A stretch of 64,000 nt of DNA from an uncultured Verrucomicrobiae bacterium (lineage in GTDB: Bacteria > Verrucomicrobiota > Verrucomicrobiia > Chthoniobacterales > Chthoniobacteraceae), in the NCBI GenBank assembly GCA_963769025.1, contig CAVYKI010000009.1, forward strand, positions 352,001 through 416,000, in the 5' to 3' direction. Position numbers and translations under genes: made by a program. The notes under the pieces are model-generated. The model was not told the origin of the DNA. It did no database searches and saw only the letters and a list, made by a program, of their open reading frames with translations. Below, in pieces: positions 43,624 to 45,674 of the stretch (its first letter is position 1; the number at the start of each line of letters is the position of its first letter).

Positions 43624-45674
43624 ATGAGTCACGGGCGTCTGAATTTCCGGCATCGAGGCGCAGGCCACCGGGTCGCGCGCGCGCGCGGCGACGTTTCACA
43701 CCGCGCACAATGAAGTGCGCACGCCGCTCTTCATGCCGGTGGGCACGCAGGCGACGGTGAAGGGGCAGCTCACGCAGGCGCTGGAGGATGCCGGGTCGCA
43801 GATCCTGCTCGCGAATACCTACCACCTGCTGCTGCGGCCGGGGCCGGAGGTGTTCCGCCGCACGGGCGGCATTCACGGGTTCATGAGCTGGAAAAACTCC
43901 GTGCTCACGGACTCCGGCGGGTTCCAGATTTTCTCGCTGCCGCACTCGCGCGCGATGACCGAGGAGGGCGCGGCCTTCCAGAGCTACATCGACGGGCGCA
44001 CGATCCTGCTCAGCCCGGAGGTGAGCATCGAGACGCAGAAGGCGATCGGCAGCGACATCATGATGGTGCTCGACCAGTGCATCCCCTCGACCGCGGACGA
44101 AGCGGCGGCGCGCGCGGCGCTCGGCATCACGCATCGCTGGGCGGCGCGGAGCCTGGCGGCGCGCGGGGATTCGCCGCAGGCGCTGTTTCGCCATCGTGCA
44201 GGGCGCGCTTTTTCCAGAGCTGCGGCGCGAGAGTGCGGCGCGGCCTGAGCGCGATGCCGTTCGATGGCTTCGCGATCGGCGGGCTGGCGGTCGGCGAGAG
44301 CCGGAGCGAACGCGAGGACACGTGCGAACTCACCGCGCAACTGCTGCCGCACGATCGGCCGCGCTATCTCATGGGCGTCGGCACGCCGCTCGATATCCTC
44401 GAGGCGGTGCATCGCGGCGTGGACATGTTCGACTGCATCATCCCCACGCAGGTCGCGCAGCGCGGCGCGGCCTTCACCTCGCGCGGCTTCCTGCAATTGC
44501 GGCGCGGCGTTTACAAATTCTCCGACGAGCGCGCTCGACCCGCAGTGCGACTGCCCGACGTGCGCGCGCTACTCGCGCGCCTATCTGCATCACCTCACGA
44601 AGACCGGCGAGCACCTCGGCTGGCAGCTCCTCGGGCAGCACAATCTCTACTTTTACCACCAGCTCATGCGCGAGATCCGGCAGAGCATTTTCGAGGATCG
44701 CTTCCTCGAGCTCTACCGGGAAAAGCGCGCGTTCCTGCACGAGACGGACGCGGATCATCCGATCCACAAGCAGAAGCCGCGGAAGCGGATGGCGTTTCAC
44801 CTTGGCGAACTACGAAGTGCACCGCGCGCCGGAGGGCTTCTGCGAGCATCCGGCAGATTTCCTCCGGCGAGATCATGCACTCGCGCACGCCGCCGATGGA
44901 GGAGGCGCACCGGCTCTACATCGAGCAATCCGAGCTCGCCGAGCGGCTGCACCTTTCCGCCGGCAGAAAGTGCGGAGACCGCCGCGCCGCTGGTGATCTG
45001 GGATGTCGGTCTCGGCGCGGCGGCGAATGCGATGGCGGCGATCCTCTGCTACGAGGCGCAGGCCGCAGCCGGGCCGGTGCGGCCGATGCACATCGTCAGC
45101 TTTGAAAACGATCTCGATTCGCTGCGGCTCGCGTTCCAGCACAACCGCGAATTCACCTACCTGCGGCACAGCGCGATCCGGCGGCATTCTCGACGACGGC
45201 CACTGGCAATCGTCCGCGCCACGCGGGCCTGAGCTGGACGCTCGTGCAGGGCGATTTCCTCGAAACGATGGCCGAGGCTCCGGCGCCGCCGGACCTGATC
45301 TTCTTCGACATGTTTTCGAGCAAGACCGACGGCGACCAGTGGACGCTCGGCGCATTCCGCCAGATCTTCGCCGCGTGCGCGGGACGGCGCGGTGGAGCTT
45401 TTCACCTACACCTGCTCGACGCCGATCCGCGCGGCGCTGCTCGCCGCCGGATTTCACGTCGCAAAAGGGATGCAGCACCGTGGACAAGGTGGACACGACG
45501 ATCGCGCTCACGCCGGAGGCGGTCGGGATGGGCGGCGGGCGTAAGTTGCTTGGCGAAGAATGGCTGGGCAGGTGGAGCCGTTCCGGCGCGCAGTTTCCCA
45601 CGGACGTTTCGGTGGAACGGCGCGCAGCATTCGAGCAAGCCATCCGCGGGCATCCGCAGTTCCGCCGCGTGTGA
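43624..45674 (+). CDS. tgt: tRNA-guanine(34) transglycosylase fused to an MnmC/MnmD-like methyltransferase domain (multiple frameshifts)
   Basis: [53 protein letters not shown]; then [43 protein letters not shown]. Confidence 0.88.

Follow-up and report, generated by a model that had tools for sequence, protein, structure and literature searches.

Does the broken reading frame at 43624..45674 on the plus strand of the DNA stretch analyzed here encode a single protein that unites two enzymes of tRNA wobble-base modification and, if so, which reaction does its second half catalyze? The stretch (the window) comprises 64,000 nucleotides (nt) of contig CAVYKI010000009.1, from an uncultured bacterium of the Chthoniobacteraceae (Verrucomicrobiota). 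From the letters alone, the original prediction had read this gene as a queuine/preQ1 tRNA-ribosyltransferase (Tgt) joined to a methyltransferase of the MnmC/MnmD type that depends on S-adenosylmethionine (SAM). The answer that we find moderately probable is one protein of 679 amino acids (aa), with a Tgt half and an MnmC2-like half and with frame breaks that are artifacts, which would both insert preQ1 and methylate 5-aminomethyluridine (nm5U) to 5-methylaminomethyluridine (mnm5U).

The tgt-mnmC2-like fusion gene begins with an ATG at 43624 and ends with a TGA at 45672-45674 on the plus strand, in agreement with the boundaries given in the original prediction, and its 2051 nt correspond to 679 codons, a stop codon and 11 extra single bases. 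In a mechanically compiled list of open reading frames (ORFs), no uninterrupted ORF covers 43624-45674; the longest overlapping pieces measure 177-342 aa and occupy all three plus-strand frames. Consistent with this dispersal, the within-codon position of highest GC content switches repeatedly along the gene, and the motif strings quoted in the original prediction were all recovered in a three-frame translation of 43624-45700, scattered over the three plus-strand frames. Frameshift-aware dynamic programming was then used to align the DNA with three intact homologues—one-base skips numbered exactly 11 in every case, two-base skips were absent, and the resulting reading met no stop before the TGA. 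Along this reading, 603 of 679 residues were identical to those of P0004 (an intact homologue of 681 aa), 597 of 679 to those of P0002 and 582 of 678 to those of P0061. A MAFFT alignment of the DNA with eight related loci, each with an open frame of 674-688 aa, likewise gave 11 window-only bases inside the gene and no window-only gaps in the aligned stretch; once these bases were removed, 680 codons remained, with the sole stop at the end. The extra bases, placed by both alignments and a frame check between 43649 and 45473 (+), with a placement that is ambiguous by a few nucleotides, lie at 43649-43651, 44185-44186, 44240-44241, 44527-44533, 44807, 44841, 44965, 45178-45179, 45213-45222, 45382-45388 and 45463-45473. 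Four of them fall in the Tgt domain and seven in the MnmC2-like domain, and homopolymer extension does not describe most of them.

To place this reading in a broader context, we examined the distribution of the architecture among public sequences. A 70-aa in-frame piece from the C-terminal half (44966-45175) matched 2157 proteins at E ≤ 1e-3 among 3845 candidates. The TGT (PF01702) and Methyltransf_30 (PF05430) domains occurred together in 98 of the 120 homologues listed, as the original prediction of a Tgt-methyltransferase fusion had anticipated; most of these 98 proteins span 675-710 aa, and the other 22 homologues are no longer than 527 aa. Those homologues that carry a name in their source are called 'queuine tRNA-ribosyltransferase' or 'tRNA guanosine(34) transglycosylase Tgt', and the source taxa named were Chthoniobacter, Chthoniobacterales and Verrucomicrobiota. 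A separate scan of one genome per species, queried with the last 294 residues of P0004, yielded 30 related loci, all labeled Verrucomicrobiota and including the cultured bacterium Chthoniobacter flavus Ellin428 (L007). In 21 of the 30 loci, one uninterrupted frame of 680 aa or more runs from MPVGT through the methyltransferase; seven others end at contig ends and are contiguous as far as they are present, and the remaining two (L026 and L027) are frameshifted. The relatives in these 21 loci thus read as one ORF, and the stop and new start between the domains that the original prediction had named as refuting it do not occur there. The fusion is genuine and conserved, and Tgt normally takes this form in the Chthoniobacterales and related Verrucomicrobiota. 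One chain with both domains is encoded by these relatives, but not by the window sequence as deposited, which is broken by 11 single-base insertions. One intact fusion of 691 aa (P0025), which matches the 70-aa window fragment with 87% identity over the aligned stretch, carries the source label Vicinamibacterales (Acidobacteriota); either its contig was binned wrongly or the gene was transferred out of the Verrucomicrobiota.

These data also show that the novelty attributed to the gene in the original prediction was overstated. Public databases contain hundreds of intact copies of the fusion, annotated simply as Tgt, and TGT-MnmC2 fusions are listed in a preprint entitled 'Alternate routes to mnm5s2U synthesis in Gram-positive bacteria' (bioRxiv 10.1101/2023.12.21.572861), which does not assay their function. 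The fusions listed there share the architecture described here, i.e., COG0343/PF01702 followed by the MnmC2 domain of COG4121. Besides this listing, our literature searches returned no characterized Tgt-MnmC fusion. The window copy is one more member of a known, functionally uncharacterized fusion family, seen through a damaged assembly.

The frame breaks in this copy are most likely single-base insertions from assembly or polishing rather than biology, because the essential gene ileS, 5 kb upstream, shows the same insertion-only damage. The ileS gene (isoleucyl-tRNA synthetase, 38538..41316, +) has its Pfam matches split between frames. Of 93 homologue alignments, the 12 with the best scores all show one-base skips at about 39498-39507, 40039-40042, 40199-40202 and 40815; additional events fall within 39177-39476, a stretch over which no homologue tried (P0127, P0123 and others) aligns cleanly. 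In total, ileS carries at least four and probably seven or more single-base insertions, which match those of tgt-mnmC2 in kind. An alignment of ileS to P0121 was discarded for 39189-39460, as it runs through a stop. In the same vein, two loci from metagenome-assembled genomes carry the same fusion gene in frameshifted form (both at 8700-11000), with three one-base skips needed in L026 and one two-base plus one one-base skip in L027, which suggests that some assemblies tend to introduce consensus errors into this gene.

If the breaks were real, the copies of tgt-mnmC2 and ileS in the window would be pseudogenes and a functional copy might sit elsewhere in the genome—an explanation that we consider very improbable, even though it would account for breaks that are restricted to two genes with intact neighbors. 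All 11 events in tgt-mnmC2 are +1 insertions, and across both genes at least 18 events are insertions without exception, with no deletions and no nonsense codons; no internal stop remains in tgt-mnmC2 once the 11 bases are removed. Bacterial gene decay, by comparison, is biased toward deletions, and ileS is essential, both of which count against pseudogenes. Moreover, the fragments of the fusion gene retain a third-position GC content near 0.9, and the differences between the window and L006 number 53, 54 and 192 at the first, second and third codon positions, respectively. At columns that are invariant in the eight relatives, the window deviates at only 2 of 480 first, 5 of 522 second and 5 of 135 third positions; with so little lineage-specific change at invariant positions, there is no sign of decay in tgt-mnmC2.

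The kind of base inserted offers a possible clue to the origin of the damage. When the extra base is placed after an intact codon, as an alternative third letter, the pair is synonymous in 11 of 11 cases in tgt-mnmC2 and in six of seven in ileS; the seventh, ATC[G], can be read as Ile or as Met, the latter being the residue found at this position in the near-identical homologue P0127. Synonymous third-position pairs therefore make up 17 of the 18 placed events in the two genes, as compared with 65% of simulated random insertions (p ~0.005), a figure that depends partly on the placement of the breaks, which is itself partly forced by the alignment model. The extra bases may be explained by both alleles of a strain-variable third codon position having been written into the consensus, a scenario with which the synonymous pairing fits, although this fit is suggestive only.

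The distribution of the damage along the window is what weighs against an assembly artifact. It is limited to two genes, tgt-mnmC2 and ileS, and all other long ORFs are intact, including lspA (41320-41850) and the P450 gene that lies directly downstream of the fusion gene (45680-46813, −), together with two small ORFs. Among 120 ORF fragments scanned, only ileS and tgt show one Pfam family split between frames. A uniform error process would not give such a pattern. Nevertheless, an artifact remains the most likely origin of the extra bases, judging from the sequence evidence set out above. The last explanation for the breaks, namely that they are decoded by programmed +1 frameshifting or quadruplet reading, finds a point in its favor in the common direction (+1) of every shift; we regard its likelihood as next to negligible, as the sites have no common motif, the extra bases are missing in the eight relatives and the Pfam scan found no gene of the 64-kb window split between frames beyond tgt-mnmC2 and ileS. 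The four-letter words at the 11 sites read CGGC, CTGT, GCGC, CGCG, GGCG, TTCT, GGCA, ATCC, TCCG, CGGC and GCAA, and the search for a shared frameshift motif or quadruplet signal among them was negative, leading us to reject that candidate. This case bears a lesson on data quality, i.e., that insertion-only consensus errors in two conserved genes would be miscalled as pseudogenes.

With the reading frame restored, the N-terminal half can be assigned with some precision. The Tgt domain occupies 43676..44728 (+) and is split across frames by its four extra bases, such that PF01702 was detected on three window fragments (E-values of 9e-62, 1e-32 and 4e-25) covering profile positions 2-175, 189-284 and 285-352 of 357. 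The intact homologue P0004 passes the TIGR00430 equivalog model with 446.2 bits against a cutoff of 306.75 (profile positions 3-361 of 368), and its first 368 residues can be aligned over their full length to the Tgt of Zymomonas mobilis (1ozm, E 2e-107), with conservation of TDSGGFQ, LD(Q/E)C, GGLAVGE, DMFDC and CxCxxC…HHL…HN. The window reading itself contains TDSGGFQ, LDQC, GGLAVGE, DMFDC and CDCPTC, the last being the zinc motif at 44546-44563 (+), which is followed by YLHHL/QHN; the residues typical of bacterial, preQ1-type Tgt enzymes (DQC and GGLAVGE) that the original prediction had pointed out are therefore present and align to 1ozm through P0004. We take TDSGGFQ and DMFDC to supply the catalytic aspartates, CxCxxC…H the zinc site, and D-x-C and GGLAVGE the preQ1-type pocket, following the literature on the Z. 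mobilis enzyme. All catalytic, zinc and preQ1-pocket motifs are shared with the Z. mobilis Tgt (1ozm/1enu), from which the fusion differs by having LDQC instead of LDEC and by a C-terminal addition of 310 residues. On the strength of these profiles and motifs, the N-terminal half is a canonical bacterial Tgt.

The Tgt domain is connected to the second half by a basic linker (44729..44788, +). In an AlphaFold2 (AF2) model of full-length P0004, residues 383-386 of this linker have a predicted local distance difference test score (pLDDT) below 50, and both domains are modeled at a pLDDT near 90. The full-length model as a whole reaches a pLDDT of 89.1 and a predicted template modeling score (pTM) of 0.59; the predicted geometry between the domains is undefined, and the model gives no firm indication of whether the active sites are coupled.

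The C-terminal half is a SAM methyltransferase domain of the MnmC2-like type (44789..45671, +), which runs from MAFHLG to HPQFRRV and is split by its seven extra bases. PF05430 scored 21.5 bits on a 50-aa window fragment, just under the gathering cutoff of 22, and 40.5-46.1 bits in four intact homologues. The MnmC2 model NF033855 aligns to residues 413-619 of P0004 over profile positions 7-201 of 209. A search of the Protein Data Bank (PDB) with the single sequence of the domain gave only 3vyw, at an E-value of 0.038, which was insufficient and made a profile necessary. A profile built from 26 domains translated from the related loci placed the Aquifex MnmC2 (3vyw, E 3.8e-9) first, followed by the N-terminal domain of E. 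coli YfcK (2qy6, E 0.0019). The AF2 model of the C. flavus methyltransferase domain (pLDDT 89, pTM 0.89) led to the same family—the best eight Foldseek matches in the PDB were all MnmC2 or MnmC (E-values of 5e-13 to 2e-8, TM about 0.5-0.64), and generic class I methyltransferases and spermidine synthases came next. Profile, NF033855 alignment and Foldseek agree with the original prediction in pointing to a class I methyltransferase that is closest to MnmC2, and we assign the C-terminal half to the MnmC2 fold on these homology and model-based grounds.

The fused domain shares its fold with Aquifex aeolicus MnmC2 (3vyw) and with the N-terminal domain of MnmC from E. coli and Yersinia (2qy6, 3ps9, 3awi, 3pvc and 3sgl), as well as the SAM-binding Glu and Asp and the equivalent of Lys236. 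It differs from these proteins in its low sequence identity (16-19%), in a C-terminal extension of its own that ends in HPQF, and in its partner, which is Tgt, whereas the MnmC2 domain of E. coli and Yersinia is joined to the FAD oxidase MnmC1. According to Kim and Almo (PMC3648344), the conserved residues of MnmC are F67, G69, G70, E101, D178, G179, P182 and K236. In our alignment, the fused domain retains the glycine loop as well as residues equivalent to E101, D178 and K236 of the E. coli protein.

We next looked at the wider family to which this domain belongs. The C-terminal profile, run against 1.84 billion cluster representatives, matched 2360 proteins at E ≤ 1e-3, with 420 of them at E ≤ 1e-30. 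Among the 150 matches listed, 14 span 657-736 aa and many have 270-300 aa and start at the N-terminus of the domain itself, i.e., they stand alone. One stand-alone cluster has nine members, seven of them 292 aa in length, on contigs of up to 31,554 bp, and another has members on a contig of 103,667 bp; these stand-alone MnmC2-like forms are real genes. All five fused members sampled pass the Tgt model. Based on model scores, the fused methyltransferase belongs to a distinct MnmC2-like subfamily that includes the stand-alone forms. Its acceptor-side motif forms a continuum, with D(P/F)(Y/F)SPxxNxE(M/L)W in stand-alone members, the near-canonical DPFSPKANPSMW or DPFSHKVNPELW in some fused lineages, and an altered version in the Chthoniobacterales, window copy included, where it reads DMFSS…QW as compared with DxFSPxxNPxxW. 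Three stand-alone proteins of 273-292 aa (P0356, P0392 and P0393) have no Tgt domain and are named 'queuine tRNA-ribosyltransferase' by one source, which looks like annotation transfer from the fusion proteins.

What, then, would the fusion protein do? The original prediction had offered two options, a bifunctional G34/U34 enzyme or a methyltransferase with a new substrate, perhaps a deazaguanine derivative. By homology, the Tgt domain exchanges G34 for preQ1 in tRNAs with GUN anticodons (Asp, Asn, His and Tyr), and the flexibly tethered methyltransferase would transfer a methyl group from SAM to the nitrogen of an aminomethyl side chain carried by a wobble base. The likeliest reaction of the latter would be the conversion of nm5(s2)U34 to mnm5(s2)U34 in UUN tRNAs (Lys, Glu and Gln), as carried out by the stand-alone Aquifex MnmC2. 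The two halves would then modify the tRNA sets reading the Y-ending and the R-ending halves of the same NAN split codon boxes. The GUN and UUN tRNA sets, over which Q and xnm5s2U are distributed, both have U33-N34-U35 anticodon loops. The shared NAN boxes and the common U33 and U35 would provide a rationale for co-expression of the two activities and, possibly, for shared binding of the anticodon loop. Queuosine (Q) itself is implied to be completed in this organism by gluQ, the gene for tRNA glutamyl-Q34 synthetase, which the original prediction had already noted in the window; it is intact (14650..15528, −), with an NF004315 score of 255.4 bits against a cutoff of 250. In Aquifex, MnmEG makes nm5 directly and a stand-alone MnmC2 methylates it, and TGT-MnmC2 fusions occur in genomes that encode MnmA, MnmG and MnmE, as stated in the preprint that lists them (bioRxiv 10.1101/2023.12.21.572861). 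A fusion of this type would unite the enzymes for Q34 and xnm5s2U34, which tune NAY/NAR decoding of the same split boxes.

Several features of the methyltransferase half speak against nm5U as its acceptor. NF033855 scores of 55.9 and 54.6 bits fall well under the equivalog-domain cutoff of 136, and seven stand-alone and five fused relatives that were sampled also stay below this cutoff, at 55-77 bits. The fused domain has M in place of G179 and S in place of P182, two SAM-binding residues of bifunctional MnmC whose conservation is reported to exceed 98% (PMC3648344). In addition, the NPxxW stretch reads (T/S)(D/S)xxQW, with loss of the NP. Together, the G179M and P182S changes and the altered NPxxW stretch indicate that the acceptor site may differ.

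One explanation along these lines is that the methyltransferase N-methylates the 7-aminomethyl group of preQ1-34, or of a later Q intermediate, made by its own Tgt domain—unlikely, in our view, although chemically sensible. The product of preQ1 methylation would be 7-(methylaminomethyl)-7-deazaguanosine, and the chemistry would equal that of the nm5U-to-mnm5U reaction, with a primary aminomethyl group at the major-groove edge of base 34 as the acceptor in both cases. Retention of the fusion in at least 14 clusters differing from one another by more than 50% identity (matches of at least 650 aa among the 150 listed) is in line with this idea, as are the position of the subfamily under the MnmC2 cutoff and the altered DMFSS…QW motif of the Chthoniobacterales. 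N-methyl-preQ1 is, moreover, a natural constituent of phage DNA, where it is made by the unrelated DpdM, as reported in a second preprint (bioRxiv 10.1101/2023.04.13.536721). This preQ1 N-methyltransferase would set a chemical precedent if the fused domain methylates preQ1; it has, however, an unrelated DUF3109 metal-binding fold and acts on DNA, such that the parallel is an analogy only. Against preQ1 as the acceptor, gluQ implies a finished Q34, with which preQ1 methylation would compete, and other fused lineages keep near-canonical motifs, e.g., DPFSPKANPSMW and DPFSHKVNPELW. The full-length model (pTM 0.59) shows no fixed geometry between the domains, literature searches found no report of N-methyl-preQ1 in tRNA, and the MnmA/G/E-encoding genomes in which the preprint places the fusions point the same way. 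A narrower version, in which the domain of the Chthoniobacterales in particular has switched its target from nm5U to the chemically equivalent preQ1-34 aminomethyl group and yields N-methyl-preQ1 or a methylated Q intermediate in tRNA, strikes us as rather unlikely too; if true, it would add a wobble nucleoside that is new to tRNA, beside or replacing queuosine.

The low MnmC2 scores and the two changed MnmC-conserved residues would also fit a different role altogether, with the domain acting on another RNA or a small-molecule acceptor, or serving Tgt as a non-catalytic tRNA-binding module. The stand-alone members of the subfamily, on contigs of up to 103,667 bp, indicate that the domain works without Tgt, which is in keeping with such a role. 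We judge it improbable, as the SAM-binding acidic residues, the DVGLG glycine loop and the K236 equivalent show little or no variation in fused and stand-alone forms alike; this conservation argues for an active MnmC2-type enzyme. Methylation of nm5U next to preQ1 insertion, within a single chain, is the function that we favor for the fusion, and the cultured carrier C. flavus Ellin428 makes the functional question cheaply testable.

The surroundings of the gene provided no operon clue to its function. A blastn comparison of window positions 33001-56000 with the 30 loci aligned nothing beyond the fusion gene; tblastn searches with ileS, lspA, the two small ORFs and the P450 gene gave no match in the flanks of the 30 loci, and no neighbor family was common to more than 10 of them. 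An Rfam scan of the window likewise returned no family at gathering score, the preQ1 riboswitch included. ARAGORN called a 91-nt tRNA-Arg(tcg) at 41391-41481 (−), inside the coding region of lspA; this call is probably a false positive, as Rfam has no tRNA there at gathering score.

Finally, the window holds several further genes that merit brief mention. A protein of the Pup-ligase family is encoded at 55458-56879 (+), with 408 bits for PF03136 and with scores below the PafA (325 vs 551 bits) and Dop (294 vs 492 bits) cutoffs, which marks it as divergent. An intact hprK-ptsH-ptsI cluster, encoding HPr kinase, HPr and enzyme I, is located at 30712-33712 (+). Additionally, a heme-binding CxxCH protein of the Planctomycetes-Verrucomicrobia-Chlamydiae (PVC) type (TIGR02604/TIGR02603) is encoded at 9845-11971 (−) and a protein with a 3-keto-disaccharide hydrolase domain at 47297-48310 (+), both of which fit an origin of the window from a genome of the Planctomycetes-Verrucomicrobia type.

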